A stretch of DNA of 13,309 nt from a virus. Position 1 is the stretch's first letter; every line of letters begins with the position of its first letter. The notes below the pieces were generated by a model, which was not told where the DNA came from, searched no databases, and saw only the letters and a list, made by a program, of their open reading frames with translations. The position numbers and the translations under genes were made by a program. This document shows positions 1-13,309 of this stretch, piece by piece. The stretch is taken from the UHGV virus genome UHGV-0148168; one strand, written 5' to 3'.

Positions 1-49
1 ACGAGATCTAGTACGGTCTCGTGGGCTCGGAGATGTGTATAAGAGACAG
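1..49. other. Synthetic Illumina Nextera adapter: P7 tail (ACGAGAT), 8-nt index CTAGTACG, read-2 transposase adapter ending in the mosaic end AGATGTGTATAAGAGACAG. Not phage sequence.
   Basis: 16..49 reads GTCTCGTGGGCTCGGAGATGTGTATAAGAGACAG, which I recognise as the Nextera read-2 adapter; 1..15 fits the end of the P7 primer plus an 8-nt index. Confidence 0.95.
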
Positions 50-77
50 ATTCAGAACTATACATATTAACCTCTAA

Positions 78-371
78 TTACTCACCTACCACTTCAGCGA
101 TGATATTTTTATTATTAAAGTTTTTATCGCAATACAGAACATAATTATACTGCATTACACCACCAGATTTAAGTTGTTTTTGCACTTCAGCTTTCATTTC
201 AGGACGATCACGTTCAACGATATTCATAATATCCGCTTCAATTTGAATTTCAACTTCAGTCTGATCTGCAGTCATAGACCATTCGCACAAATCTTTGTCA
301 TAACCCGCCATAGCAGGCTGAGCAGCGCAAGAAGATAAAGCAAAAATTGCAGCAAAGATAAATTTTTTCAT
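78..371 (-). CDS. sp: Spackle (Sp), periplasmic superinfection-exclusion protein that inhibits incoming gp5 lysozyme; 97 aa
   Basis: ATG start with GAGGAG Shine-Dalgarno upstream. N-terminal signal peptide MKKFIFAAIFALSSCAAQPAMA. Length 97 aa and position (two genes downstream of dmd, after gene 41) match T4 sp (61.3) as I recall it. Confidence 0.75.
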   Translation of the reverse strand: MKKFIFAAIFALSSCAAQPAMAGYDKDLCEWSMTADQTEVEIQIEADIMNIVERDRPEMKAEVQKQLKSGGVMQYNYVLYCDKNFNNKNIIAEVVGE

Positions 372-399
372 GATAATCTCCTCAGTAGTTTATGTTTAT

Positions 400-429
400 A
401 TAGTATCTCAATTTCCAATAAAAGTAAAC
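400..429 (-). promoter_or_regulatory. Candidate sigma70-type early promoter for sp: -35 GTTTAC (429..424), 18-nt spacer, -10 TACTAT (405..400)
   Basis: Minus strand reads GTTTAC-N18-TACTAT, starting 3 nt after the stop of the upstream ORF and about 30 nt before the sp ATG. The same GTTTAC-N18-TACTAT arrangement recurs at 6998..7027. Confidence 0.4.
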
Positions 430-431
430 AG

Positions 432-689
432 TTATTTTAAAACTTCTGCATAATCACATGTTACAAACTGTTTCTCTAACTTGGCGATTTTACGAAAGTA
501 TCTTTTGCATTGACGAATCTGTCGCTTTGTAGGGCGCACAGCAAACTTAATAAATTCCACTCGACCAAATGGAGGGCTTTCTTCTGCTGGAATATCTAGC
601 ACCAATTCCCACGTATCTGCAATAAGTGCTTTGAATTGAGTATTTTTCCTGACGTTATACGGAGTAGGTTTAAATAAAACAATATGCAT
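432..689 (-). CDS. Hypothetical basic 85-aa protein at the position of T4 gene 61.4 (between dmd and sp); function unknown
   Basis: ATG at 689..687 lies 1 nt after the dmd stop (TAA-T-ATG), with a GAGG Shine-Dalgarno inside the last dmd codons. The ORF fills the gap between dmd and sp. No motif recognised. Confidence 0.55.
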   Translation of the reverse strand: MHIVLFKPTPYNVRKNTQFKALIADTWELVLDIPAEESPPFGRVEFIKFAVRPTKRQIRQCKRYFRKIAKLEKQFVTCDYAEVLK

Positions 690-690
690 A

Positions 691-873
691 TTATCCTCGG
701 CAATCTACTTCACATACTTTCTTGTCATCAATGAAAGCTTTAACTAATGCTTTATTAACTTCAGCATATTGAGTAGTAGCCCATTGAACGTCATCTTTCA
801 TCATTGTGGTTTCTTTAGTAAACATGCTTTCATTTTTAAACCACCCCATAAAAACTACCTTTACCAATTCCAT
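691..873 (-). CDS. dmd: Dmd (discriminator of mRNA degradation), 60-aa antitoxin that neutralises host RnlA/LsoA RNase toxins
   Basis: Exactly 60 aa, sequence MELVKVVFMGWFKNESMFTKE... matches my recollection of T4 Dmd (gene 61.5). Sits immediately downstream of gene 41 as in T4. GGAG Shine-Dalgarno before the ATG. Confidence 0.75.
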   Translation of the reverse strand: MELVKVVFMGWFKNESMFTKETTMMKDDVQWATTQYAEVNKALVKAFIDDKKVCEVDCRG

Positions 874-894
874 AACAATCTCCCCATTTAACCA

Positions 895-920
895 ACAAGA
901 CTACTATACCATAGTCTTGT
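895..920 (-). repeat. Perfect inverted repeat (9-bp arms ACAAGACTA / TAGTCTTGT, 8-nt loop) in the gene 41-dmd intergenic region; predicted mRNA stem-loop
   Basis: Read directly: plus 895..903 acaagacta and 912..920 tagtcttgt are reverse complements. Located between the gene 41 stop (932) and the dmd Shine-Dalgarno. No U-tract follows on the transcribed strand. Confidence 0.6.
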
Positions 921-931
921 CAGCTTGTAAA

Positions 932-2359
932 CTAAAATTTTAATTCATTTGCCAAAGCATCTAACTGAGCTCGAGTGGATTCATTTCTTTGATAGCGATT
1001 CTGCTCAGCCTGAATCTGCTGTGAACCTGCTACTTCACTCACTTCAGTTGGAGTAGAATCTTGTTCAATTTCTACCCATTTTTGATTTCCTTTTTGAACA
1101 CCCATCAAAAACTTATTCCACTTATTCTTATCGCCATATCGTGATTTGATTTGCTTAATAAGTTGTTGTTCAGCAGCTGCTAGCTCCTCGGTTTCAATGA
1201 CCGCAAGCATAAAATCAGCTGTTGCTGGAAGACCAGCAGATTCTGCAATATCGCTCATGTTAACATCGGAAGAGTCCCAAGCTTGTTTACCAACCTGTGC
1301 TGCAGTCCAAAGAACAGTTTCGGTTTCAACAGCCAGAGCACGCAATTCCTCTGCAATAGCTTTAACAGTTGTGTAACTATTTTCTGAATAAACTCTAATA
1401 CGGCAAGATTTACAAATACCTAGATAGTCGACAATAATGATTGTTGGAACAAAATTCTTCTTGAGCTTTAATTCATTTAAAAGTGATCGAAATGTATTAG
1501 CGTCTGCTCCACCAGTAGGATATTGCTTAACGATTAAACGACCAAGGGTAGATTTCTCACGCCATTTTTCCATTTTTCCTTTATACTCAGCGTAAGAAAT
1601 ATGTCCATCATCAATATCGTCAAGAGAAACATCGAGCATGTTAGCATCAATACGTTTAGCACAGACTTCTTCTGCCATTTCCATGGAGATATAAAGAACG
1701 TTATGACCAAGCTGCAAATAATCTGCTGCTAATGAACAAAGTCCTAATGATTTACCAACGTTAACGCCAGCCATTAAAACGTTCAGTGTTCCAGTCTCAG
1801 CTCCGCCTTTAGTAATTTTGTTTAGAATTCTGAGTTTAAATGGAACCTTACGAGCTTTATTCATATAAGATAGCCAACGTGCTTCATAGTCATCCATCCA
1901 ATCATGACCAACGTAGCTATCAAATGAAATTGATAATGCTTGACGCATAATGTCAGGAATAGCACCAACATCCGGCATTTTCTTATTTCGTTTTTCCGGA
2001 GGAAGCTCAGCATTAGTTTGAATTTCGATTATTTTAGACGTAGCATTAAACATCGCCCTTTGCTGAACATATTTTTCTGTTTCTTTTATTAACCAACTGT
2101 GATCTTCCGGAGAATCAGTCAGTTTTGAAATAAGTGTTTTTACACCAGAATATTCTGTTTCAGTAAATGAACTATTTTCTAATGCAACATTTAACGCATT
2201 AATAGATGGAACGCTATGATACTCATTAACATGAGATTTAATTAATTTGAATGTATTTTTAGCTGGACCACTTTCAAAATATTCTGAATCCATATATGGC
2301 CAAACTTTTGAAAAATAAGCTTGATCAAATATGAGATGAGAAAGAATAATTTCTACCAC
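932..2359 (-). CDS. 41: Gene 41 replicative DNA helicase (DnaB-like, primase-helicase component), 475 aa; apparent GTG start
   Basis: Walker A motif GVNVGKS. Length 475 aa and N-terminus MVEIILSHLIF match T4 gp41 as I recall it. The first codon is GTG (plus 2357..2359 = cac) with a strong AAGGAG Shine-Dalgarno 5 nt upstream. Confidence 0.9.
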   Translation of the reverse strand: MVEIILSHLIFDQAYFSKVWPYMDSEYFESGPAKNTFKLIKSHVNEYHSVPSINALNVALENSSFTETEYSGVKTLISKLTDSPEDHSWLIKETEKYVQQRAMFNATSKIIEIQTNAELPPEKRNKKMPDVGAIPDIMRQALSISFDSYVGHDWMDDYEARWLSYMNKARKVPFKLRILNKITKGGAETGTLNVLMAGVNVGKSLGLCSLAADYLQLGHNVLYISMEMAEEVCAKRIDANMLDVSLDDIDDGHISYAEYKGKMEKWREKSTLGRLIVKQYPTGGADANTFRSLLNELKLKKNFVPTIIIVDYLGICKSCRIRVYSENSYTTVKAIAEELRALAVETETVLWTAAQVGKQAWDSSDVNMSDIAESAGLPATADFMLAVIETEELAAAEQQLIKQIKSRYGDKNKWNKFLMGVQKGNQKWVEIEQDSTPTEVSEVAGSQQIQAEQNRYQRNESTRAQLDALANELKF

Positions 2360-2368
2360 ACTTACTCC

Positions 2369-2707
2369 TTAAAAGAATTTAAATTTTTTCTTTGACCTTT
2401 TATTAAATGCATCTTGCAGTTGCATTGTAATACATTTTTCTACATGAGGAGCTAACTCAGCTTTTCTTTCTTGGTCAAGAACAGCAAAGTCCATTACAAC
2501 CTTTCCATCAACCCAATCCAGTTTAGTTACATACACTATATGTGTAGAACCATCTTCTAGTTTAATGACAATCTCCTGGATAACATTTTCCATAGCGGAT
2601 TTAATTATCTTAAGAGACTCATTAAAAAGACGTTCTTTTCTTTCTTCTTCCCCCTCCGAAGAGGGGGATTCATCGATAATTTCTAAATCTAAATCATCTT
2701 TACTCAT
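2369..2707 (-). CDS. 40: Gene 40-like protein (T4 gp40, head vertex assembly chaperone); most likely ATG start at 2707 (112 aa), with the track's 118-aa version starting at a GTG at 2725
   Basis: Position between uvsX and gene 41 as in T4. The ATG at 2707..2705 overlaps the last uvsX codons; the track's first codon is GTG. The start choice is uncertain; identity rests on synteny only. Confidence 0.55.
   Translation of the reverse strand: MSKDDLDLEIIDESPSSEGEEERKERLFNESLKIIKSAMENVIQEIVIKLEDGSTHIVYVTKLDWVDGKVVMDFAVLDQERKAELAPHVEKCITMQLQDAFNKRSKKKFKFF
2650..2667 (-). other. GC-rich RNA hairpin CCCCCUC-UUCG-GAGGGGG (7-bp stem, UUCG tetraloop) inside the 5' coding region of gene 40, 32 nt downstream of the uvsX stop
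   Basis: Read directly: plus 2650..2656 ccccctc, 2657..2660 cgaa, 2661..2667 gaggggg. On the mRNA strand this is a perfect stem with a UUCG loop and encodes SPSSEGE in the gene 40 frame. Confidence 0.7.
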
Positions 2708-3881
2708 TAAATTCTTCCATATCACTTAACTGCTCGAGGTCAGTTTCTAAATCAGCTGCTGATTTACTTTTACTTTCTGGAGATTTAAATTTTTCAACCT
2801 TTGAGTTAATCAATTCATCAACTTCAGCTTCAACAATTTCATTACTATCAATAGCACCTAACTGATAAGCACGTTTAATAGCATCTCGGAATGGTTGATG
2901 CTTAAATAAAGGACCCCAGAATGTAGTGCAGTTGGTATCTTTTGCACGCCAAGATTTTTCTTCGCGAATCATCTCGCCGGTTTCTTCATCAAGAAATTCA
3001 CGAGCATACCAGCCATTTTTAGGTTTTACTACAAATCCTAATTCTAGAGCCATATCTAACAATCCAGAATAAGGATCGATACCACCGTCAAATTTAACAT
3101 CAATAAAGAATTTACTTTTTTCTTTAACGGTACGAGATTTTTCTACATTTAGAACAAATTGATACCCCTGAAGATCAGAACCATCTTTAATCTGACGCTT
3201 ACCGATAATGAATACAGTATCAGCTGAATACATTACGCCTGTACCACCTGTCATCACGGTTTTACTAAACATTTCAATGGTTTCAATTGTATGGTTAACC
3301 GCAACGCACGGAATATTTTTAATGCTAAAATAAGGAGTAACAATACGGAATAATGACTTCAGTGATTTAGCACGAGTCATATCTGCCACAGATTTTTCAT
3401 TCAAGGCATCTTCCGTTTCTTTCTTAGAAGCCATATTACCAATTGAGTCGATGAATACAATAACCTTTTCACCACGCTCAATAGCTTCAAGCTGATTCAC
3501 CATATCAATTTTCAGCTGTTCAACTGACTGGATTGGTGTATGAATTACTCGTTCCGGGTCAACTCCCATGGATCGCAAATAAGCTGGAGTAATACCAAAT
3601 TCGCTATCATAGAATAGACAAACTGCATCAGGATATTTGTTCAAATACGCTGCAACCATAGTCAAAGACATATTTGATTTAAAGTGTTTAGAAGGCCCTG
3701 CGAAAATAGTTAAACCAGACTGCATTCCACCATCAATCGCACCGGAAATAGCGATATTAAGCATTGGGATTTTTGTACGGATTACATCCTTTTCATTAAA
3801 GAATTTAGATGTAGTCAGTTCAGCAGTCATTTTAGAAGTGGAAGCTTTAATCAAACGGGATTTTAAATCTGCAATAGACAT
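2700..3881 (-). CDS. uvsX: UvsX recombinase (RecA/Rad51 homolog), 393 aa
   Basis: RecA-type Walker A GPSKHFKS. Length and N-terminal sequence MSIADLKSRLIKASTSK match T4 UvsX as I recall it (about 391 aa). Lies between the glycosyltransferase gene and gene 40 as in T4. Confidence 0.92.
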   Translation of the reverse strand: MSIADLKSRLIKASTSKMTAELTTSKFFNEKDVIRTKIPMLNIAISGAIDGGMQSGLTIFAGPSKHFKSNMSLTMVAAYLNKYPDAVCLFYDSEFGITPAYLRSMGVDPERVIHTPIQSVEQLKIDMVNQLEAIERGEKVIVFIDSIGNMASKKETEDALNEKSVADMTRAKSLKSLFRIVTPYFSIKNIPCVAVNHTIETIEMFSKTVMTGGTGVMYSADTVFIIGKRQIKDGSDLQGYQFVLNVEKSRTVKEKSKFFIDVKFDGGIDPYSGLLDMALELGFVVKPKNGWYAREFLDEETGEMIREEKSWRAKDTNCTTFWGPLFKHQPFRDAIKRAYQLGAIDSNEIVEAEVDELINSKVEKFKSPESKSKSAADLETDLEQLSDMEEFNE

Positions 3882-3934
3882 TCATTTTTTCCATAGGCAT
3901 CATTATATTTTCCTCACTGGTTAAAGATAGAGTA

Positions 3935-3958
3935 ATTATAACACAATAAATTTAGGCA
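3935..3958 (-). promoter_or_regulatory. Candidate promoter for uvsX: extended -10 TGTTATAAT (3943..3935) with an upstream MotA-box-like TGCCTAA (3958..3952)
   Basis: Minus strand reads TGCCTAAATTTATTGTGTTATAAT about 50 nt before the uvsX ATG: a perfect TATAAT with a TGn extension, and a TGCTT-like element near -30. uvsX is a middle-mode gene in T4 (established knowledge). Confidence 0.35.
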
Positions 3959-4801
3959 TTAATCAACTGCTATTGGATGAATAGCATTAAACTTATGAAA
4001 TGCTTCTGATTTTTCTTTACGCGAAACACACATGCGAAGAACCTTTAATGGTTCATCTTCTTCACCCAACGATTTTCGTTTTTCAATATTAGAAGTTTTC
4101 CAACGAGCTTGCTCTGGAAACTCTCTATTGATTTGCTCAAGCGCTCTATTATGTTTAGAATTACTACGAATTGAACTACATCCACCGGGAGCGTGTGATT
4201 TTCCAGATACAACTAGATATTTGAACAAGGCCAAATGCGGATAACCTTGATTAATTAAATTGAGAAATGCATACATATCTTCGCATAAATCAATTTTTCC
4301 ATACCCAATTTGTTCTGTCGTAAGTTTTCCGAGGTCATACCATGTATTCGTGAATCCATATGAGTTTTCACGATAATTACCCCAAGATGAAGTAATTTTA
4401 AAAATTGGTAGACGAGCATGACCGTGATAATACCCGCAATCCATGGCATCTTCAACATATTGAATCAATTCATAGAACTGTTCACGAGTTAATTGATTAA
4501 TTTTATCTACGCGCCGTTTATCGTCTCTCTTTCGTATTGAACTCATACGAATAGTAGTATCATCATCAATCATCCATATTCGTTGACCTGCATACATATC
4601 AGTAATTGCTTTACGAGTACCGGAAATTCCATTAACATCATCAGGAATAGTTACAATTTTAGCTCTAGACCCATAAGCATCATAATAAGCTTTTTCTTCG
4701 TGTTCACGCACTACAATATGGGGTTCATAATCAGTCGGAAACATATCAAGGGCAGAAACTGCCCCTACACGCTGATAACTTGGAATTACGAATTGAATCA
4801 T
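3959..4801 (-). CDS. Putative DNA-modifying glycosyltransferase of GT-A type, 280 aa, at the locus where T4 carries beta-glucosyltransferase
   Basis: N-terminal FVIPSYQR followed about 75 residues later by WMIDDD (DxD) is the GT-A fold signature. T4 beta-gt is 351 aa and GT-B, and does not resemble this. Placement between uvsX and gene 42 suggests a hydroxymethylcytosine glucosylation enzyme such as the T2/T6-type beta-glucosyl-HMC-alpha-glucosyltransferase (uncertain recall). Confidence 0.5.
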   Translation of the reverse strand: MIQFVIPSYQRVGAVSALDMFPTDYEPHIVVREHEEKAYYDAYGSRAKIVTIPDDVNGISGTRKAITDMYAGQRIWMIDDDTTIRMSSIRKRDDKRRVDKINQLTREQFYELIQYVEDAMDCGYYHGHARLPIFKITSSWGNYRENSYGFTNTWYDLGKLTTEQIGYGKIDLCEDMYAFLNLINQGYPHLALFKYLVVSGKSHAPGGCSSIRSNSKHNRALEQINREFPEQARWKTSNIEKRKSLGEEDEPLKVLRMCVSRKEKSEAFHKFNAIHPIAVD

Positions 4802-5439
4802 TTAAGTGCCTTACATTTGTCAAAATGGTATCTTGTCATATTTGGCCCACGTCCTTTTAGTCCGCAATGCGGACATATTTTTTCTATCAAATTATGAGGT
4901 TTTCCTTTACGATTTTTAGACATCGTTTCTTTAATTATTTTAGCTTTTTCTGCGCCAAAAATTTCTTCATAAGTTTTACCAGAATTTTCCTTTGCTCGAT
5001 TTATAATTCCATATGCCTGCTCATTTTTACCATACATTGGATTACCTTCGCCTTTCATTCTTTTAGAATGATCAGGACGCTTGATTCCACGAAAGGCATT
5101 TCCGCACTTATATCTTTCTTCTGGAGATAGTTTTTTACCGTACATTCCATTTAATTTGCCTGGAAAACTTCCTCCCCATGCTTCATTCTTTAAATTATAT
5201 GAATCCGGACAATTAGCAGCATCTAAACAAGTTAAAATAATTTCTTCAACCTGTCTAAACATTGGTCCTTCATATAATATTTCTTTATTAAAGGATTTTA
5301 TTCCATATTTCTTTTTAGCATGTTGCCAAACTACACCCGAACCATCATAATTTGGGTTGTGACCATCATGACTTCCTATATACCACTTTTTAGTTTTAGG
5401 ATGTTTATACTTATAAACATGTGGCACATTTACTTCCAT
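4798..5439 (-). CDS. GIY-YIG family homing endonuclease (Seg-like), 213 aa, with NUMOD-like repeats and a C-terminal CxxC zinc-finger-like motif
   Basis: N-terminal VYKYKHPKTKKWYIGS fits the GIY...YIG motif. Repeated G-x-YGK/basic modules (NGMYGKK, NPMYGKN) and C-terminal CPHCG...DKC. The start overlaps the gene 42 end by 10 nt and the stop overlaps the glycosyltransferase start (ATGA), with no own promoter; typical of free-standing phage homing-endonuclease genes. Confidence 0.7.
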   Translation of the reverse strand: MEVNVPHVYKYKHPKTKKWYIGSHDGHNPNYDGSGVVWQHAKKKYGIKSFNKEILYEGPMFRQVEEIILTCLDAANCPDSYNLKNEAWGGSFPGKLNGMYGKKLSPEERYKCGNAFRGIKRPDHSKRMKGEGNPMYGKNEQAYGIINRAKENSGKTYEEIFGAEKAKIIKETMSKNRKGKPHNLIEKICPHCGLKGRGPNMTRYHFDKCKALK

Positions 5440-6170
5440 TTTCCAGTATAATCCTTTTTAGCAATATGAGTTTCACCAGTGTTCCACCAATGGTCAACTA
5501 AATAAAACTGATTTTCGTACACATGAAGACTTCCAACGTTCCATATAATAGAACCTGCTTTATATTGCCGCGATGGGTCGCCTGCATTCAAATCAGATAC
5601 TAATTTATCTAGTACGTATTTTTGCCATGCATAATCATTACGATAGCCTGCCCAGCAGTCATTGCTTCTCATATTAACAACTGCATTGACTTTCTTATCA
5701 CGAATCAGGTACTGTACTGTATTAGTACACATGAAATCTGACATACCATCTTTATTGTAGTCAAATTGCATGGATGGACGAGTATAAATCATGATACCAC
5801 GTCGAGAATCAGGATTTTGACCAAGTTCAGCTAAACACATATCATACTGGGCATAGTTATCTTCTGACCAGATAGCCCAGCCATAATTCGAGTTAATTTC
5901 ACCTTTAGAAGATGCTACTTGTTGCCAAATCTTCGGTGTTTCACCCGGAATATCTTTAACGAACAAGCTCTTAGATTTATACCATTCAAGTTCACGCTGA
6001 ATGTATTCATCATTAAGAGCGCCAAAAATAAACGGTTCATCTGCTACAAATGATGCGCCAATAATTTCAATAGTTTTAACGCCAGTTTTATCAACTACGA
6101 AATCTTTTTCTTTTAATGCAAGCCCCAAATGAAGACGGATTTCTTCAACTGTCATAGAGTCATTAATCAT
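5430..6170 (-). CDS. 42: Gene 42 dCMP hydroxymethylase (thymidylate-synthase fold), 246 aa
   Basis: Length 246 aa equals T4 gp42. The sequence matches my recollection of T4 dCMP hydroxymethylase, including the FMCTNT region carrying the catalytic cysteine. GAGG Shine-Dalgarno before the ATG. Confidence 0.85.
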   Translation of the reverse strand: MINDSMTVEEIRLHLGLALKEKDFVVDKTGVKTIEIIGASFVADEPFIFGALNDEYIQRELEWYKSKSLFVKDIPGETPKIWQQVASSKGEINSNYGWAIWSEDNYAQYDMCLAELGQNPDSRRGIMIYTRPSMQFDYNKDGMSDFMCTNTVQYLIRDKKVNAVVNMRSNDCWAGYRNDYAWQKYVLDKLVSDLNAGDPSRQYKAGSIIWNVGSLHVYENQFYLVDHWWNTGETHIAKKDYTGKWK

Positions 6171-6177
6171 TTAAACC

Positions 6178-6327
6178 TCAATTGATGCATTCATATTTAA
6201 ATTGTAACAGTAATAAACCCCACCCTATGATAAGAGTTGGAATCATAGCAGGAACTGTTACGCTATAGTATATACTTATTATAACCATCAAGATTAAAAG
6301 CAATGCTGCTATAATTTTGCTTTTCAT
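6178..6327 (-). CDS. Small hydrophobic ORF, 49 aa (MKSKIIAALLLILMVIISIYYSVTVPAMIPTLIIGWGLLLLQFKYECIN), predicted membrane peptide; absent from the supplied ORF track
   Basis: Hand-translated codon by codon from the minus strand. The ATG at 6327..6325 overlaps the imm stop (ATGA); the TGA stop at 6180..6178 forms part of the gene 42 Shine-Dalgarno (TGAGG). It exactly fills the imm-42 gap and has two hydrophobic stretches. Confidence 0.45.
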   Translation of the reverse strand: MKSKIIAALLLILMVIISIYYSVTVPAMIPTLIIGWGLLLLQFKYECIN

Positions 6328-6575
6328 TCCTTCTCTCTGATGATAATTACTTGATTTGGCTGTACAGACTTTTTAGTTTCACCCGCAATTGACCAAATAA
6401 ATGTAATAAACCAACCAATAATTGACCAGTTAAACAGTAAAGATGTGAAAAAGATTCCTACTGTCGATTTTGACCCACGCATCAAGGCGATGAACCATGG
6501 AAGCATGTATATAATAATAGCCAACACACCTGAAACTAAAACCATAAAAATTGAACCTGCTACTAAAGTTTCCAT
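6324..6575 (-). CDS. imm: Imm, membrane immunity protein (superinfection exclusion, blocks DNA injection of superinfecting phage), 83 aa
   Basis: 83 aa equals the length of T4 Imm. Two hydrophobic transmembrane segments. Located between genes 43 and 42 as in T4. Its Shine-Dalgarno overlaps the stop of the upstream lipoprotein ORF. Confidence 0.7.
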   Translation of the reverse strand: METLVAGSIFMVLVSGVLAIIIYMLPWFIALMRGSKSTVGIFFTSLLFNWSIIGWFITFIWSIAGETKKSVQPNQVIIIREKE

Positions 6576-6582
6576 GTTTTCC

Positions 6583-6963
6583 TCACTTAGTCAAATTTTT
6601 TACACATGAATTATAAGAATTCACTACATACTCCATCGGAGCATTTTTACCTGTACGCAACTGGTAATTATTAGCCCAATTTGCCCAAAGCACGGCGCAG
6701 TAATTTTCAATTTTTTCTTCGCGTGTAATTACATCTGAATTACGATATGCTTGAGCAGATTCATCTGGACGAATAGCTTCGTCAAAATTCGCCTGCATTT
6801 GTTCTACTGTTTGCTTTGGAGCTTCTTTATAACACTTGACATTAGGATTATAAAATTTGCTTGAACAGTTTACAATTTTTCCTGCATCAGACTGATTTAC
6901 TACCGGTCCTTGAGCTACACAACCAGTAAGACCTAATGCAATAACCAAAATAGCGATTTTCAT
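6583..6963 (-). CDS. Predicted lipoprotein, 126 aa from the ATG at 6963 (the track's 130-aa version starts at a TTG at 6975); function unknown, possibly the imm.1 position
   Basis: MKIAILVIALGLTGC is a classical signal peptide with lipobox L-T-G-C. Four further cysteines in the mature part. GGAG Shine-Dalgarno 6 nt before the ATG. A candidate promoter lies upstream and the gene 43 terminator lies beyond it. Confidence 0.6.
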   Translation of the reverse strand: MKIAILVIALGLTGCVAQGPVVNQSDAGKIVNCSSKFYNPNVKCYKEAPKQTVEQMQANFDEAIRPDESAQAYRNSDVITREEKIENYCAVLWANWANNYQLRTGKNAPMEYVVNSYNSCVKNLTK

Positions 6964-6997
6964 TTCATTCTCCAAATCCGTATTAGTTGATAGTTGT

Positions 6998-7027
6998 ATA
7001 GTACCATGGAAGAACAGTCTTGTAAAC
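6998..7027 (-). promoter_or_regulatory. Candidate sigma70-type early promoter for the lipoprotein-imm-small ORF-42 gene string: -35 GTTTAC (7027..7022), 18-nt spacer, TGG-TACTAT -10 (7003..6998)
   Basis: Minus strand reads GTTTACAAGACTGTTCTTCCATGGTACTAT, with a TG two bases before the -10. Lies downstream of the gene 43 terminator and about 35 nt before the lipoprotein ATG. Confidence 0.45.
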
Positions 7028-7110
7028 AGTTTTGTGAAAAATTTTTTAGGGAATTCTAAGGGTCCAGAATCATCTGTTTTTCATAAGTATAGATTTATAT
7101 TACTTGTATG

Positions 7111-7131
7111 AAAAAGGGACCCGGAGGTCCC
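7111..7131 (-). terminator. Rho-independent terminator after gene 43: GGGACC-UCCG-GGUCCC hairpin followed by UUUUU
   Basis: Plus 7116..7131 gggacccggaggtccc is a perfect 6-bp inverted repeat with a 4-nt loop. On the minus strand it is followed by TTTTT (7115..7111). Begins 13 nt after the gene 43 stop codon. Confidence 0.8.
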
Positions 7132-7144
7132 TAGATTTATTCTA

Positions 7145-9841
7145 TCAGCCAAACAGGAAGTCTAACGAAGCTTTTTCCTCATAATCCATACCAGCCGATT
7201 CACACATACCCGCAAGCGGTTTAACAAACGATTTTTGGAACAAAGTTGAGTAGTCAATCCAAGATAGTACATCAGAACGAATTTCTTTTGGAAGTTCTGT
7301 GCCCGACGGCCAAGCAATGCACTTGTCACCAAATGGATTTCCTTCACGCAATGGAAGAACCATTACCTTATTTCCATCCAAAATTGGAGCTACACCTAGA
7401 CCACTAACAGCTCGACGATAAGTTAGCACACCGCGAATATGGAACGGGCATTTAAATCCTGGCCAACCTTTATCATCATATTTCGCTATATCGTTCGCAG
7501 TTTTTACTTCAGCAATAACTTTATAGTCGAGTTGACGATATTCTTTCTCAAAGTTCTTGTAGTATTCTTGGACAGACTCTTCACCTTCCTGAAGAATACG
7601 ACGAATACTTTCTTCGAGAGCTTCTTGCACTGCTTTTGGTGTTGAACTCTGCTGAGTTTCCATGCCCATGATTTTTAGATGCGGTTCAGCAAATCGCTTA
7701 TCTTCCATATCATAAACGTTCAGAGCATAACGTTTTTTCGCTTTCCAAAATCCACCAACACCCTTTGAACCAAGCGGAGGGCAAGAAATAGCTTCACGGT
7801 CCATATGCATCAGATGCTCGCGATTATTCATATAATCACATAACTCACGATATGCAACATCAATCATAGGTTCCATCTTTTTCTTACCAAACTGATTCAT
7901 GAATTCAACTAAATCATTTTGTTCTTTAAAGCGGTCAAGACCTACTTTTTCAATTACTTTATCTACACAAACATATACCGAATCAGTATCACCTGCTGCA
8001 ATGAAATCTTCATCATTAGTTCCGCATACTTTATTCAGATATTCATTAATTTTACGAGCAATCCACTGAATACCGACTTGGCCAAAAATTGTGATAGCAG
8101 TAGCATTTCGCAAATCATAGTAACGGAAATGAATATTACCAAGAGCACCATAAAGACTGTTAATAAGAATTTTACGGTTTAGCTGATTTGTATTAGCAAG
8201 TGTAGCCGCTTTTTCACATTCTTCAATCAGACTATTGAGAACAGATTCAGTATAATTCGATAGTTCATTTAAGAAATCATCACTGAACTTAACATATCGT
8301 TCAACTTCTGGTTTAGTTGAACAAGACCCTGCGCCTTTCATAATAATCTTTTTAATAGCTTCGGCATTCATTTCTTCAGCGAACATTTTCTTTTTCCAAT
8401 CTTTACGCTGGAAAAATACTTTAGCGATTTCCTTTGGAATGATACCTTCTTGATGCTTATCATACATCCATCCATTCGGAGAACAAGAATATTCATCACT
8501 CGGTTTAGGAGCTGTTCCTGCGATATATTCATGAATTGGATGAACTTTAAACTGCCCACGAATAGTCTCAGGACTAATGTTAACCTGACGAATAATGCTC
8601 GGATACAGAGACGTCAAGTCAAAACTCATAATATATCGACGAGCAATTGGTTTAGGTTCAAACACAAATGCACCCGGAAAACTCTGTTTAACGTGCGAAC
8701 CTTGTTGAGGAATAACCTTATGTTCACCTTTCAATGAGTTAAAAATAATAGCATCCCAAGTTTTAATAGGACTCATTACACCGGAAAAAGGCATTTTAGC
8801 GTAATAAGACATACTTAAAACTAGATCGATAAACCCACGAATTTTATCAATTGCTTGAACTGATTCTACGTCAATGATGTTATAACTAATGTATCGTTGA
8901 TGATTAGTCTCACGAAGTTTATTAATAGGACCGTCGTATGGTAATTTACCTTTTTTGGTTTCATGCTGAGCAACTGATTCCAAAGAGAATGACGGCAAAT
9001 TAGTAAAAGCGAATTTCTTGTACAAATCTAAATAATCAAGAATAGATACGCCATCAATAGAATAAATTTCTTTGCTACCGTACATATTTTGAATTAGTTT
9101 AGATTTTACCCGACCGATTGGAGAGAAGCGTTTCATACTACGTTCGCCCAGAATCATTTTAACACGATTCATGATATACGGAACGTCAAACCCCTCAATA
9201 TTCCAACCGGTAAAAATAGCAGGTCGTTTCTGTTCCCAGAGATTGATATATTCCATGAGCATATCACGCTCATTATCGAATGGCATATAAATTACTCTGT
9301 CAAGAATTTCTTGAGGAACTTCATCACCACCTTCACAGTCAAGCTTAGCAGCTAACTTTGCATCCCATTTTGATACTGAACCGTACATTGAATTCAAAAG
9401 GTCGAAAACATAAAAACGATCGTCAATTGAATCATAATGAGTGATAGCATCAATTTCATATTCAGCTTTCATTGGGTCAGGAAATTTATCACCAGTAACC
9501 TCAATATCACAGTTAGCTACACGAACAAATTTTCGGTCATAAACAATTTCTGAACCATACGTATCACTGATATAAGCGAGTTTAAAATCGTTCATACCAA
9601 GAGCTTCGAGACCGATGTCTTCCATTCGCTTCATCCAATCTCGAGCATCTTTCATTGATTGAAATTTTTGAGGAGCGCAATTTTTACCATAAATGTCTTT
9701 GTACTTTGACTCTTCCTTACAATGCCTAAACATAGTCGGAAGATATTCTACTTCACGAGTACGTTCCTTTCCGTTTTCATCAATATAACGTTCAACAATG
9801 TTATTTCCGACTGTTTCGATAGAGATATAAAATTCTTTCAT
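7145..9841 (-). CDS. 43: Gene 43 DNA polymerase (family B, with 3'-5' exonuclease), 898 aa
   Basis: 898 aa equals T4 gp43. N-terminus MKEFYISIETVGNNIVERYIDENGKERTREVEY matches my recollection of T4 gp43. Exo I motif CDIEV, pol motif A DLTSLYPS, motif B KILINSLYGALG, motif C GDTDS. Confidence 0.96.
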   Translation of the reverse strand: MKEFYISIETVGNNIVERYIDENGKERTREVEYLPTMFRHCKEESKYKDIYGKNCAPQKFQSMKDARDWMKRMEDIGLEALGMNDFKLAYISDTYGSEIVYDRKFVRVANCDIEVTGDKFPDPMKAEYEIDAITHYDSIDDRFYVFDLLNSMYGSVSKWDAKLAAKLDCEGGDEVPQEILDRVIYMPFDNERDMLMEYINLWEQKRPAIFTGWNIEGFDVPYIMNRVKMILGERSMKRFSPIGRVKSKLIQNMYGSKEIYSIDGVSILDYLDLYKKFAFTNLPSFSLESVAQHETKKGKLPYDGPINKLRETNHQRYISYNIIDVESVQAIDKIRGFIDLVLSMSYYAKMPFSGVMSPIKTWDAIIFNSLKGEHKVIPQQGSHVKQSFPGAFVFEPKPIARRYIMSFDLTSLYPSIIRQVNISPETIRGQFKVHPIHEYIAGTAPKPSDEYSCSPNGWMYDKHQEGIIPKEIAKVFFQRKDWKKKMFAEEMNAEAIKKIIMKGAGSCSTKPEVERYVKFSDDFLNELSNYTESVLNSLIEECEKAATLANTNQLNRKILINSLYGALGNIHFRYYDLRNATAITIFGQVGIQWIARKINEYLNKVCGTNDEDFIAAGDTDSVYVCVDKVIEKVGLDRFKEQNDLVEFMNQFGKKKMEPMIDVAYRELCDYMNNREHLMHMDREAISCPPLGSKGVGGFWKAKKRYALNVYDMEDKRFAEPHLKIMGMETQQSSTPKAVQEALEESIRRILQEGEESVQEYYKNFEKEYRQLDYKVIAEVKTANDIAKYDDKGWPGFKCPFHIRGVLTYRRAVSGLGVAPILDGNKVMVLPLREGNPFGDKCIAWPSGTELPKEIRSDVLSWIDYSTLFQKSFVKPLAGMCESAGMDYEEKASLDFLFG

Positions 9842-9880
9842 AGATATTCCTTAGTTTATAGCCCGAGTTATTAGGCTCTT
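9842..9880 (-). promoter_or_regulatory. Gene 43 translational operator: mRNA hairpin (stem AGCCU/GGGCU, 8-nt loop AAUAACUC) plus Shine-Dalgarno AGGA, the site bound by gp43 for autogenous translational repression
   Basis: Minus strand reads GAGCCUAAUAACUCGGGCUAUAAACUAAGGAAUAUCUAUG. The loop AAUAACUC (plus 9865..9872) is the wild-type loop I recall from the T4 gene 43 operator used in the original SELEX experiment. Confidence 0.8.
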
Positions 9881-9899
9881 GATATATTATACTCCAAAT

Positions 9900-9917
9900 A
9901 AGGGGCCGAAGCCCCTT
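9900..9917 (-). other. GC-rich UUCG-tetraloop hairpin AAGGGGC-UUCG-GCCCCUU, starting 2 nt after the regA stop codon
   Basis: Plus 9900..9906 aaggggc, 9907..9910 cgaa, 9911..9917 gcccctt. Perfect 7-bp stem; the loop reads UUCG on the mRNA. Followed by UAUUUGGAG and a TATAAT at 9891..9886. Confidence 0.75.
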
Positions 9918-9919
9918 GC

Positions 9920-10288
9920 TTAATTACCAATCGTATATTTAGGAACGAGTTTCCATTCATGTTTTTGTTTAAAAGAAATAACTCGGAAGTTATTAGTTAA
10001 ATCTTTCATAAAAGTTCTTTGACCAGGAACGATTTCAATCAGTCCCCAATCTTCTAACAACCATGCTATTGAATCACGACGAACTTCATCTTCTTCTGTC
10101 ATTTCAACTTGGCGACCATCCATACGAAGCATTTCTTTAAAATGAACGATATAGTATAGTCCTTTTTTCTGAAGAATATGACAGGACTGATACAGAACTT
10201 TATCTTTATTATTAGCAATTCCCATACGAGTCAAAGTTTCTTTTACTTTCAGAAAATCTTCAGGTTTTTTAAGAGTAATTTCAATCAT
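9920..10288 (-). CDS. regA: RegA translational repressor of early genes, 122 aa
   Basis: 122 aa equals T4 RegA. Position between genes 62 and 43 as in T4. The ATG lies 1 nt after the gene 62 stop (TAA-A-ATG). Confidence 0.85.
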   Translation of the reverse strand: MIEITLKKPEDFLKVKETLTRMGIANNKDKVLYQSCHILQKKGLYYIVHFKEMLRMDGRQVEMTEEDEVRRDSIAWLLEDWGLIEIVPGQRTFMKDLTNNFRVISFKQKHEWKLVPKYTIGN

Positions 10289-10289
10289 T

Positions 10290-10853
10290 TTACCATTCCA
10301 ATGCTAGTTTTTTGAGTTGTTTCTGTTCTTTTACGTTCTTAGTCACTTCTTTCAAAAAATCATCCGTGACTAATCCTTTAAGTTCTTTTAATACTAAAGG
10401 AAGTTTTCCATTTTTAGTAAGAATTGATTTATAGTTAATTGCATCATTTGTATTAACTTGATACCGCTTAGCAAGTAACTTAATAATCAATACTTCGGTG
10501 GAATCTTCAACCAGTTTTGCCCATTTACCATATCTTTTACCACGAGGAACTGCAGCCATTAGATAATTAAAATGAGCTTCATCACTTAATCCAGAACCGA
10601 TTAAATTCATAGCATATACGGCTGGCATGCACTCTGGAAATTGTGATAATGCATTCTCAACCATGTATTTTGAATAATCTTTTTGAGCAATAGAGCATTT
10701 AGTTTTATTATTAATAGCTCCAATTATTTCAAAAAATTCATTTTCAGCTTTTTCCTTGAAAGAATCAGCAGCAGATTGGACAGCTGTCCAATCTTTTGAA
10801 TACCAAGCAACTTGATGCTTGTTTAATTGAATATCATCTTCAAATAAGCTCAT
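10290..10853 (-). CDS. 62: Gene 62 clamp-loader small subunit, 187 aa from the ATG at 10853 (the track's 194-aa version starts at a GTG at 10874)
   Basis: From the ATG the protein begins [22 protein letters not shown], consistent with T4 gp62 (187 aa as I recall). The ATG lies 1 nt after the gene 44 stop (TGA-T-ATG), indicating translational coupling. Confidence 0.85.
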
Positions 10854-10854
10854 A

Positions 10855-11814
10855 TCACTTCCACTGCATTTCACATGCCAATTGAATGAAAAGATATGCT
10901 AAATGTAATTCCGTATTAGCCGCAATTCCATGATACTGATTATTTTCACCAACAATTTCATACATACGAATAATACTTTGCGGAGTTACACGTGAATAGA
11001 TTTCTTCGGCAAGTTTACCCACGAACCACGAATAATCAGCTGCATATTTTGGTGCTAAAGCTCTGAGTTGTTTAACATCTTTATTTTTGAGAGACTCAAG
11101 AACATCATCAATAGCACCACGATCGTTAGTAACCAGTGATAAAATACCAGCATCCAAAACACCTTTAGATGAATAACTATCGAGCTCGCCAATAGTTTTA
11201 CGAAAATCAGGAAAATTCTTTTTAACCAAAGCTGCTACAACTTTCATATCAGCTATAGCAATTCCTTCATGCTTGCAGATTTCAGTCAATCGACGAATCA
11301 TCTGCTTCATCATTTCAATTTTATCTTCATCGGTCGGTTGACCGAATGTAATAACTCGGCAGCGTGACTGAAGTGGTTTAATAATACCATCAATATTGTT
11401 AGCAGTAATAATAATACTACAGTTTGAACTATAAGCTTCCATAAAGGAACGAAGATGTCGCTGAGACTCTGCTAACCCTGAGCGGTCAAATTCATCAATA
11501 ACGATTACTTTTTGACGACCATCAAATGAAGCTGCACTAGCAAAATTAGTCAAAGGACCACGAACGAAATCAATTTTACAGTCTGATCCATTCACAAACA
11601 TCATATCAGCATTTACATCATGACACAATGCTTTTGCTACAGTTGTTTTACCTGTTCCTGGAGAAGGAGAATGAAGAATAATATGTGGAATCTTACCTTT
11701 ACTTGTAATAGATTTAAAGGTTTCTTTATCAAAGGCGGGAAGAATACATTCATCGATAGTAGATGGACGATATTTCTGTTCAAGAATGTGTTCTTTTTCA
11801 TTTACGGTAATCAT
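10855..11814 (-). CDS. 44: Gene 44 clamp-loader ATPase (AAA+, RFC-like), 319 aa from the ATG at 11814 (the track's version starts at a TTG at 11829)
   Basis: Walker [11 protein letters not shown], Walker B VIDEFD, SRC motif LQSRCR. From the ATG the protein begins [17 protein letters not shown] and is 319 aa, as in T4 gp44. GAGGAAA Shine-Dalgarno before the ATG. Confidence 0.92.
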
Positions 11815-11848
11815 AATTTCCTCATTCAAGTTTTAGTGTAAATTATAA

Positions 11849-11862
11849 AGGGCCGAAGCCCT
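11849..11862 (-). other. UUCG-tetraloop hairpin AGGGC-UUCG-GCCCU (extendable to 7 bp with a G-U pair), 3 nt after the gene 45 stop codon
   Basis: Plus 11849..11853 agggc, 11854..11857 cgaa, 11858..11862 gccct. On the mRNA it reads AGAGGGCUUCGGCCCUUU and is followed directly by UAUAAU (11847..11842), then the gene 44 Shine-Dalgarno. Confidence 0.7.
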
Positions 11863-11865
11863 CTA

Positions 11866-12552
11866 TTAAAAATCATGGGTAGAATCAGCTTCAAGAGCTA
11901 CTACATAATTCGCATGTTCACCTTCAAATTTAGCAGCGCCTTGTTTACCTTTTGCCCAGAGCAGAAGTTTATAATTTCCTGGTTGCATTTTCATATTTGC
12001 CATATTGATAATGAAATTAAATGTATTTTCACCATCGTAATCACCAAGAGTCAAAGAATATTTAACACGTGTCAAAGCAGAATCTTCTACTTTATTAAAA
12101 CCGTTAATTACGATTTTACCTTCTTTTACCGTGATAGCAATTGTATCAATTTGCAGACCACGAGATACACGCAACAGCTGTTGAAGGTCTTCAGCTTTAA
12201 TTTCGGTAACAACAGATGCTACCGGGAATGGAATTGGTTTATTAGGAGCAACTACTGTACTCGGATCGGCTGCTGGCCAAAAAATTGTTGAGCGTGCATC
12301 AGCAATTTTAATATTTCCATCTTCTGACTGGGAAATTTCTGCATCATCATTAACTAGAGACAGAATACCGAGAAAACCGTTCAAATCGTAAATTGCTACA
12401 TCAAAATCAATAACGTCAGAAATATTTGCTTCCGCATAAGTTGTACCATTAACTGCGCGAGTCATAATAAATTGACCTGATTTAAGCATAATGCCAGAGT
12501 TAATAGTAGCGAAATTTTTCAAAATATTCAGTGTGTCTTTAGATAATTTCAT
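11866..12552 (-). CDS. 45: Gene 45 sliding clamp (PCNA-like processivity factor), 228 aa
   Basis: 228 aa equals T4 gp45 and the N-terminus MKLSKDTLNILKNFATINSG matches my recollection. Sits upstream of 44/62 as in T4. The ATG overlaps the stop of the upstream ORF (ATGA). Confidence 0.9.
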   Translation of the reverse strand: MKLSKDTLNILKNFATINSGIMLKSGQFIMTRAVNGTTYAEANISDVIDFDVAIYDLNGFLGILSLVNDDAEISQSEDGNIKIADARSTIFWPAADPSTVVAPNKPIPFPVASVVTEIKAEDLQQLLRVSRGLQIDTIAITVKEGKIVINGFNKVEDSALTRVKYSLTLGDYDGENTFNFIINMANMKMQPGNYKLLLWAKGKQGAAKFEGEHANYVVALEADSTHDF

Positions 12553-13260
12553 TTCAATTTCCTATTTACATAATAGTTAGACCAGGACCGTACAGCACCC
12601 TGATAAGATTCGTCGTTAAACCCATTAGCTACTGCAATTTTACGAAATTTATTATAACTCGGTTTTCCGTAAGCATGCCATAAAGATTTTAATTCATCTT
12701 CATGTTCAATCCAAGTTCCTCTAGCTTTAGATTTTCTAAATTTTGATTTGAATTCCGGTAAATTATTTCTAACAGTTGCTTGAATTGAAGCTCTCTGTCT
12801 TCTTTCAGCATTATTCCATAACTCTTTTTGAGATTTAGAAATTTTTGATCTTACACTTTCTGAATTCATTATATCACTAAACTTTTTAGCATAACTACAA
12901 TCAAGATATTTCAATTTCATCTTATTTGAAAGTTTAAGCTTTTTCTCATCGGTCCAGTGATTCTTCATTGAATTAGATATTTTGTATTTTACGTCAGAAC
13001 TATGTTTGTAACCTTTACGAATACCAACATAATCGGGCGTGATTTCAGATTGCGAAAGCTTTACAATTTTTCCAGTTAAAACATTTTTATATGTTCCATA
13101 TCCTTTAGCGCCAATTAAAGTATTTTCATCTGCGTATGCTTTATTAAAATATTTTATATTACTTTTTGCTTTAACTTTTAATTGAAAAAATCTTTCCAAT
13201 TTTCTTGGATCTAATATAGTTTCAGCTAAAATTTTGACGGTATATTTAGTGGTTTTAATA
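12549..13260 (-). CDS. 5'-truncated ORF (at least 236 aa in the window) encoding a lysine-rich protein with NUMOD3-like repeats; probable homing-endonuclease DNA-binding region. The N-terminus lies beyond the window.
   Basis: Motifs YKHSSDVKYKISNSMKNHW and SESVRSKISKSQKELW resemble the NUMOD3 module of I-TevI (HKHSDITKSKISEKMKGKK, as I recall it). The ORF runs open into the adapter; the track's first six residues MCIRDS are translated from adapter sequence. The stop overlaps the gene 45 ATG. Confidence 0.5.
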
Positions 13261-13309
13261 CTGTCTCTTATACACATCTGACGCTGCCGACGACTCCTTA
13301 CGTGTAGAT
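13261..13309. other. Synthetic Illumina Nextera adapter (reverse complement of read-1 transposase adapter CTGTCTCTTATACACATCTGACGCTGCCGACGA, 8-nt index CTCCTTAC, start of P5 GTGTAGAT). Not phage sequence.
   Basis: 13261..13293 is an exact match, by eye, to the reverse complement of TCGTCGGCAGCGTCAGATGTGTATAAGAGACAG. The following 8 nt and GTGTAGAT fit the i5 index and P5 tail. Confidence 0.95.

Follow-up and report, generated by a model that had tools for sequence, protein, structure and literature searches.

The stretch of DNA considered here, UHGV virus genome UHGV-0148168, is 13,309 nucleotides long (the window), and its positions 78..873 run exactly from the stop codon of sp to the start codon of dmd, with the gene for an 85-residue protein between them. 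On the evidence of its sequence, this protein can be assigned with high confidence as TifA, the ToxN inhibitory factor A of phage T4, because it is 98% identical to T4 gp61.4 over 85/85 residues and keeps Phe41, the Pro53-Thr54 pair and the basic residues Lys55, Arg56, and Arg59. The locus is very probably the standard dmd-tifA-sp stretch of a T4/T2/T6-like Tequatrovirus, working as it does in T4. It should be noted that it is an already known locus, a near-identical copy of the one dissected in T4, T2, T6, and RB69, and not a discovery. An initial annotation of the window had described the 85-residue protein as uncharacterised; it is the orthologue of a protein that was named in 2022 and whose mechanism was reported in 2023. 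Identity, motifs, and gene layout are read here from the window, and the biochemical activities discussed below are those of the published T4, T2, T6, and RB69 proteins, which the products of the window would share by analogy.

TifA of the window

The tifA gene (61.4; 432..689, minus strand) encodes 85 residues, as in T4, and as in T4 it starts 1 nt after dmd, lies under the same early promoter and is followed by a promoter motif and sp. Its product matches the Pfam family PF23945 (DUF7279) with an E value of 2.2e-20, above the gathering score, and phrog_2375 with an E value of 4e-38. The protein is identical to that of phage EC121, a 100% identical protein is present in at least 69 deposited phages, and the open reading frame (ORF) is conserved in 671 phage records; identity is 96% to the T6 protein and 57% to the RB69 homologue. 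V69A and I83V, both conservative and both in the C-terminal tail, make up the whole difference from T4 gp61.4, and the active TifA of RB69, at 70 residues, is without the tail from residue 71 on. The protein is basic, as had been noted in the initial annotation (pI 9.8, with 17 Lys and Arg versus 9 Asp and Glu). In comparisons of tifA with three related phages there are 7-10 synonymous versus 0-2 non-synonymous codon changes. In gene 41, dmd, tifA, and sp alike, the great majority of the codon changes that separate the window from T4, EC121, and Shigella phage SHFML-11 are synonymous, and the pattern therefore points to purifying selection on all four as proteins.

The residues to which function has been ascribed in T4 are all retained in the window (F41, P53, T54, K55, R56, and R59), and in an alignment P53, T54, K55, R56, and R59 are invariant among the window, T4, T6, and RB69. 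Codon 41 (567..569, minus strand) specifies Phe, the T4-type allele, and codons 53-71 (477..533, minus strand) specify the Pro53-Thr54 helix cap and the basic C-terminal helix that is RNA-binding in the T4 literature. In the published fold, a three-stranded N-terminal β-sheet packs on the basic C-terminal helix, and residue 41 lies in a loop of about 20 residues (PMC10853763). A single-sequence AlphaFold2 model of the window protein has strands at residues 2-6, 27-32, and 46-49 and a helix at residues 55-71; this secondary structure agrees with the published model, but the mean predicted local distance difference test score (pLDDT) was only 45, too low to support a fold search.

Activity of TifA and its extension to the window

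TifA was named in 2022 as the inhibitor of ToxN, the toxin of the toxIN system (Srikant et al., eLife; PMC9391042). When T4 was evolved on Escherichia coli with the type III toxin-antitoxin system toxIN, the locus of dmd (61.5) and 61.4, which is under an early promoter in T4, became amplified in all replicates (PMC9391042). Induction of tifA alone abolished toxIN defence, restored plaquing of T4 and rescued ToxN toxicity, whereas dmd was without effect; the active species is the protein and not its RNA, as established by deleting the start codon, by recoding the gene and by destroying a putative ToxN site (PMC9391042). The homologues of T2, T6, and RB69 also inhibit ToxN (PMC9391042). The proposal of the initial annotation that the 85-residue protein, by guilt by association, is an anti-defence factor was thus right in kind. 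The amplification of tifA was reproduced in a 2026 paper, in which it is tied to the homing endonuclease SegB.

A study of the mechanism followed (Guegler et al. 2023, Nucleic Acids Research; PMC10853763), in which TifA was found to trap ToxN on abundant RNA such as 16S rRNA; ToxN, TifA, and RNA form a high-molecular-weight complex in which 16S rRNA is enriched. Mutation of P53/T54 or of K55/R56/R59 results in the loss of RNA binding, ToxN co-precipitation, and rescue, and residue 41 tunes potency, the F41S and F41H substitutions giving stronger inhibition of ToxN (PMC10853763). TifA binds RNA of any tested sequence, as well as single-stranded and double-stranded DNA, with sub-micromolar to micromolar affinity (PMC10853763). 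Such promiscuous binding would also suit a protein whose main role is that of a general RNA-binding or ribosome-associated factor, for example one that binds 16S rRNA or that protects or tunes phage mRNAs, with the inhibition of ToxN secondary and mostly a matter of over-expression. Inhibition is, however, limited to ToxN proteins that share 81% similarity or more with E. coli ToxN, and point mutants of ToxN escape TifA and are again inhibited by TifA variants at residue 41 (PMC10853763). The failure of the one native copy of tifA in T4 against plasmid-borne toxIN could likewise be read as a sign that inhibition is secondary, but the native gene is enough when toxIN is chromosomal, the two proteins co-precipitate in the course of infection, and tifA was the very gene amplified in five independent T4 evolution lines under toxIN pressure (PMC9391042). 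The same general role has in its favour that six more distant homologues neutralised none of the ToxN or TenpN toxins tested (PMC10853763). With the specificity of inhibition and the repeated amplification weighed against these points, a primarily general RNA-binding role for TifA is very unlikely.

ToxN inhibition is accordingly the preferred account of TifA. In the window, the basic C-terminal helix, with its Pro53-Thr54 cap and K55, R56, and R59, would bind RNA, and the face formed by the β-sheet and loop, residue 41 included, would contact ToxN, a type III toxin. ToxN, TifA, and RNA would form a complex, largely on 16S rRNA, that keeps ToxN from cutting phage transcripts at GAAAU, and the block of ToxN would in turn defeat abortive infection by toxIN. 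Because residue 41 is Phe, as in T4, the protein of the window is by analogy probably a moderate inhibitor, enough against toxIN at the chromosomal level and not at the plasmid level.

Several points weigh against this account and against the reading of the locus as a whole. The structure of TifA is unsolved, a search of PDB sequences with TifA at E values up to 1 gave no match, and the AlphaFold2 model described above is of low confidence (pLDDT 45). The published ToxN-TifA interface rests on medium-confidence AlphaFold models, and the way in which the RNase activity of ToxN is blocked is still unsettled in the literature (PMC10853763). The activity of the exact TifA allele of the window would follow by analogy from orthologues, the T4, T2, T6, and RB69 proteins, to which it is 57-98% identical. 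Because the distant homologues neutralised no toxin tested, membership of DUF7279 alone is no guarantee of ToxN inhibition, a caveat that is weak at 98% identity. For the sp part of the locus, the candidate promoter described below is a motif match only, at 8/12 positions of the σ70 consensus.

The cleavage motif of ToxN is GAAAU, and the dmd-tifA coding message has two such sites in T4 and none in the window. The losses coincide with two of the amino acid differences from T4, I22T in Dmd (ATC to ACC, 811..813, minus strand) and I83V in TifA (ATT to GTT, 441..443, minus strand); the T4 tifA site, at the 3' end of the gene, is the one removed by the I83V codon change. The sense strand of the window has 59 copies of GAAAT in 13.2 kb (4.47 per kb), from which 1.97 occurrences are expected in dmd and tifA together, and the absence of the motif from the two genes is not significant at this window-wide sense-strand density (P(0) = 0.14). 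Among T4-like loci with dmd, the dmd site is kept in 5 of 10 and has gone from the others through two or more distinct mutations; the tifA site is retained in T4 alone among nine T4-like loci with full-length tifA. A scan of IMG/VR contributed only 5 further loci, a set too small and too closely related to serve as a proper test. Because the loci compared are closely related, the loss of GAAAU is a hint only, and the suggestion from these sequences that T4-like phages in nature protect their anti-ToxN mRNA from the ToxN RNase in this way is an improbable one. If it were true, motif loss in the message would be a second layer of counter-defence beside the TifA protein.

Operon structure, Dmd and Spackle

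From the ORF list and the reading of the minus strand, the order of transcription is gene 41 (932..2359), which encodes the replicative helicase of 475 residues with 3 differences from T4 gp41, then dmd (61.5; 691..873), tifA, and sp (61.3; 78..371), all on the minus strand. The three small genes downstream of the helicase, the 1-nt spacing between dmd and the 85-residue ORF, and a candidate promoter before sp are all located as the initial annotation had placed them, and its assignments of the helicase, Dmd, and Spackle, with the functions given to them, agree with Pfam, PDB, the comparison with T4, and the literature. At the dmd-tifA junction the sequence is GGA-TAA-T-ATG, with the dmd stop codon TAA at 693..691, a single spacer base at 690, and the tifA ATG at 689..687, and the Shine-Dalgarno sequence of tifA, GAGG, lies inside the last codons of dmd. 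That of dmd is GGGGAG (880..885, minus strand), in place of GAGGAG in T4. The gap between tifA and sp (372..431) is 60 nt long and contains GTTTAC, TACTAT, and GAGGAG, the last of these (378..383, minus strand) being the Shine-Dalgarno sequence 6 nt 5' of the sp ATG, in that order.

The early promoter of the dmd-tifA operon (903..932, minus strand) consists of (G)TTTACA, a 17-nt spacer, and a TG-extended TATAGT. It matches 10/12 positions in a σ70 scan, the best such match within 1..1100, does not differ from the T4 promoter, and begins on the final base of the stop codon of gene 41. The scan gave no promoter-like site between dmd and tifA. Soon after infection the host RNA polymerase would start at this promoter and produce a single dmd-tifA message, from which dmd and tifA are probably translated together; the coupling is suggested by the 1-nt junction and by the location of the tifA ribosome-binding site inside dmd.

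A candidate promoter of the T4 early type precedes sp (400..429, minus strand), with GTTTAC at 429..424, an 18-nt spacer, and TACTAT at 405..400. It begins 2 nt after the tifA stop codon and differs from T4 by one spacer base, and its motif matches the "promoter downstream of tifA" that is mentioned for T4 (PMC9391042). The generic σ70 scan did not list this site; its nearest match (398..370) overlaps the ribosome-binding site and start codon of sp. The site is recovered with a T4-style GTTTAC pattern, which occurs 3 times in the window against 0.58 expected, in each case intergenic and on the coding strand. This second T4-type motif would drive sp. The third occurrence, GTTTACA...TGGTACTAT (6998..7027, minus strand), is in the gap upstream of a 130-residue ORF (6583..6975), which is annotated as "immunity protein" in relatives and is followed by imm (6324..6575).

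A 14-bp RNA hairpin in the gap between gene 41 and dmd (891..924, minus strand) overlaps the spacer and -10 element of the dmd promoter. The surrounding stretch (874..945) has a minimum free energy of -20.2 kcal/mol (z = -4.75), and 0/200 shuffled sequences folded as well. The difference from T4 in a hairpin arm keeps the pairing, changing G-C to G-U, and there is no T-run after the hairpin. Only transcripts that read through from gene 41 would contain the hairpin, which may serve as a 3'-end or processing structure of that RNA. A search of 1..1100 for intrinsic terminators gave none, and an Rfam scan of the whole window gave no match at the gathering thresholds.

Dmd has 60 residues, matches PF17587 over 60/60 positions (E value 1.8e-45) and PDB entry 5HY3 chain B, "Antitoxin Dmd" (E value 1e-36), and has the same genomic position as T4 Dmd (gp61.5). 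It is 98% identical to the T4 protein and differs from it by the single change I22T, which is also present in SHFML-11 and which removes a GAAAU motif from the message, as described above. In T4, Dmd stands in for the labile antitoxins RnlB and LsoB on the HEPN RNases RnlA and LsoA (PMC9391042). By analogy with T4 Dmd, the protein of the window is predicted to inhibit RnlA and LsoA, and it would bind and block these host RNase toxins.

Spackle, the 97-residue product of sp, matches PF25676 (T4_Spackle, E value 1.6e-44) and PDB entry 6X6O (E value 8e-60), and the mature form in 7CN6 aligns with residues 23-97. As in T4 gp61.3 (PDB entries 6X6O, 6XC0, and 7CN6), the protein has a signal peptide, residues 1-22 (371..306), a mature form of 75 residues, and Cys29 and Cys81. 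It is 96% identical to T4 Sp, with T8A and A13S in the signal peptide and T42I and K53E in the mature protein. According to PMC7677548, Spackle is a periplasmic inhibitor of the gp5 tail lysozyme and a helical bundle with a Cys29-Cys81 disulfide, and it binds the gp5 lysozyme domain of a superinfecting phage through helices α1, α4, and α5. The contact residues given there (S32, M33, T34, A35, Q37, and N76) are identical in an alignment of the window with T4, and neither T42I nor K53E is among the contact residues named. The Spackle of the window would be exported with loss of the 22-residue signal peptide and would act against superinfecting T-even phages by inhibiting their gp5 tail lysozyme.

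The initial annotation had grouped the three genes as a compact anti-host module. The part that stands is dmd-tifA as one operon; the link to sp was overstated in view of its own promoter motif, the periplasmic action of its product, and the arrangement in RB69, where tifA is separated from sp by imm and imm.1 (positions 4012..4690 of the RB69 locus, L005). In the window, imm and imm.1 are about 6 kb away, near gene 43. If the three products acted together as one functionally coupled machine, their being adjoining early genes on one strand, in an order kept in more than 500 phages, would be accounted for, as would the promoter and 1-nt junction shared by dmd and tifA. Over-expression of dmd is useless against toxIN, however, whereas tifA alone is sufficient, and the targets of Dmd and TifA are unrelated toxins, so that joint action of dmd and tifA on one toxin is rejected. 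Exported Sp would act in the periplasm on the lysozyme of another phage, and inclusion of sp in the same functional unit as dmd-tifA is rejected on the grounds of its promoter motif, this periplasmic action, and the split in RB69. The published view is also of an island of independent anti-toxin genes, and a coupled module has correspondingly little probability. Because Spackle has a function of another kind, superinfection exclusion in the periplasm, and imm and imm.1 split tifA from sp in RB69, the cluster is an island of accessory genes and not a single machine. Finally, although short ORFs are frequent on both strands of the window, the chance that the 85-residue ORF is a non-coding open frame in AT-rich DNA is negligible and this is refuted by the Pfam and PHROG matches, the synonymous bias of the codon changes, the conservation in phage records, and the published start-codon deletion and recoding that show the protein to be active.

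The contig, the gene after sp, and the anti-TA island

In BLAST comparisons the whole window is 97-99% identical to many sequenced phages and is a fragment of a Tequatrovirus (T4/T2/T6-like). An interval of 881 bases around dmd-tifA-sp is shared, at 90-99% identity, by 503 deposited genomes of phages, nearly all of them Tequatroviruses of Escherichia, Shigella, and Yersinia, and the DNA of the dmd-tifA-sp region is 98.3% identical to that of many of them. The similarity to phages is confined to 50..13260. The remaining ends, 1..49 and 13261..13309, are Illumina Nextera adapter with index and not phage sequence; read directly from the letters, the left end (i7 side) is ...ACGAGAT-CTAGTACG-GTCTCGTGGGCTCGGAGATGTGTATAAGAGACAG, in which CTAGTACG is the index, and the right end is CTGTCTCTTATACACATCTGACGCTGCCGACGA-CTCCTTAC-GTGTAGAT. 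Because Nextera adapter read-through is present at both ends, the contig is an untrimmed assembly product. Elsewhere in the window, 3959..4801 and 4798..5439 (minus strand) hold a T2/T6-type β-glucosyl-HMC-α-glucosyltransferase (HMC, hydroxymethylcytosine) and an adjoining hypothetical gene. Because these replace segA and β-gt, which T4 has there, the DNA-modification genes of the window are T2/T6-like rather than T4-like.

The left-end adapter truncates the gene 3' of sp, of which only 50..65 (minus strand) is present, with the start codon at 65..63, the first five codons reading MYSSE and a GAGG Shine-Dalgarno sequence 5' of the gene. After the sp stop codon the window diverges from T4 and EC121, with GAGG-N6-ATG instead of the overlap of stop and adfA start (TAATG). 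The start is identical to that of SHFML-11 gp100, a 118-residue protein encoded at 2660-3016 of its locus (L003), and the gene is a short gp61.2 of the T2 type, in the slot that is held in T4 by adfA (61.2, 208 residues). In relatives the 118-residue gene is 97.5% identical to T2 gp61.2 and occurs in some 295 phage records; the literature describes T2 as a phage that naturally lacks adfA. The 118-residue gp61.2 resembles only the C-terminal half of AdfA (PF23813, E value 1.1e-7, profile positions 115-211), with 34% identity to AdfA and identity in the last 14 residues, and it has Cys at the position of the His of T4 AdfA that neutralises DarT1. The assignment of the gene after sp as AdfA was rejected, since both full-length homology (about 208 residues) and the DarT1-neutralising His are without a match in the relatives.

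The genes dmd, tifA, and the nearby 61.2/adfA have been proposed to form an "anti-TA island" (TA, toxin-antitoxin), and other genes there have been regarded as attractive candidates for anti-toxins (PMC9391042). The T2-type short gp61.2 is accordingly a candidate anti-defence gene in this island. Like TifA, AdfA and AdfN acting on DarT1 and the pseudo-ToxI RNAs are small early phage products that replace a labile host antitoxin and are clustered in the same island; TifA differs from them in being a protein in place of an RNA antitoxin, with RNA as a third partner. It can also be seen that exclusion genes change places around the island from one T-even relative to another.

Pfam (DUF7279), PHROGs ("unknown function"), and the GenBank records among the matches listed still leave TifA without a function, and NCBIfam has no model for Dmd, TifA, or Spackle. 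The premise that the protein is uncharacterised was understandable, because none of these sources provides a function for it. The databases lag the literature of 2022-2023, and readers and pipelines that work from sequence only will keep re-flagging TifA. The case nevertheless shows guilt by association to be a working guide in the interval from gene 41 to gene 61 of T-even phages, and the neighbouring T2-type short gp61.2 is a further candidate of the same kind as TifA.

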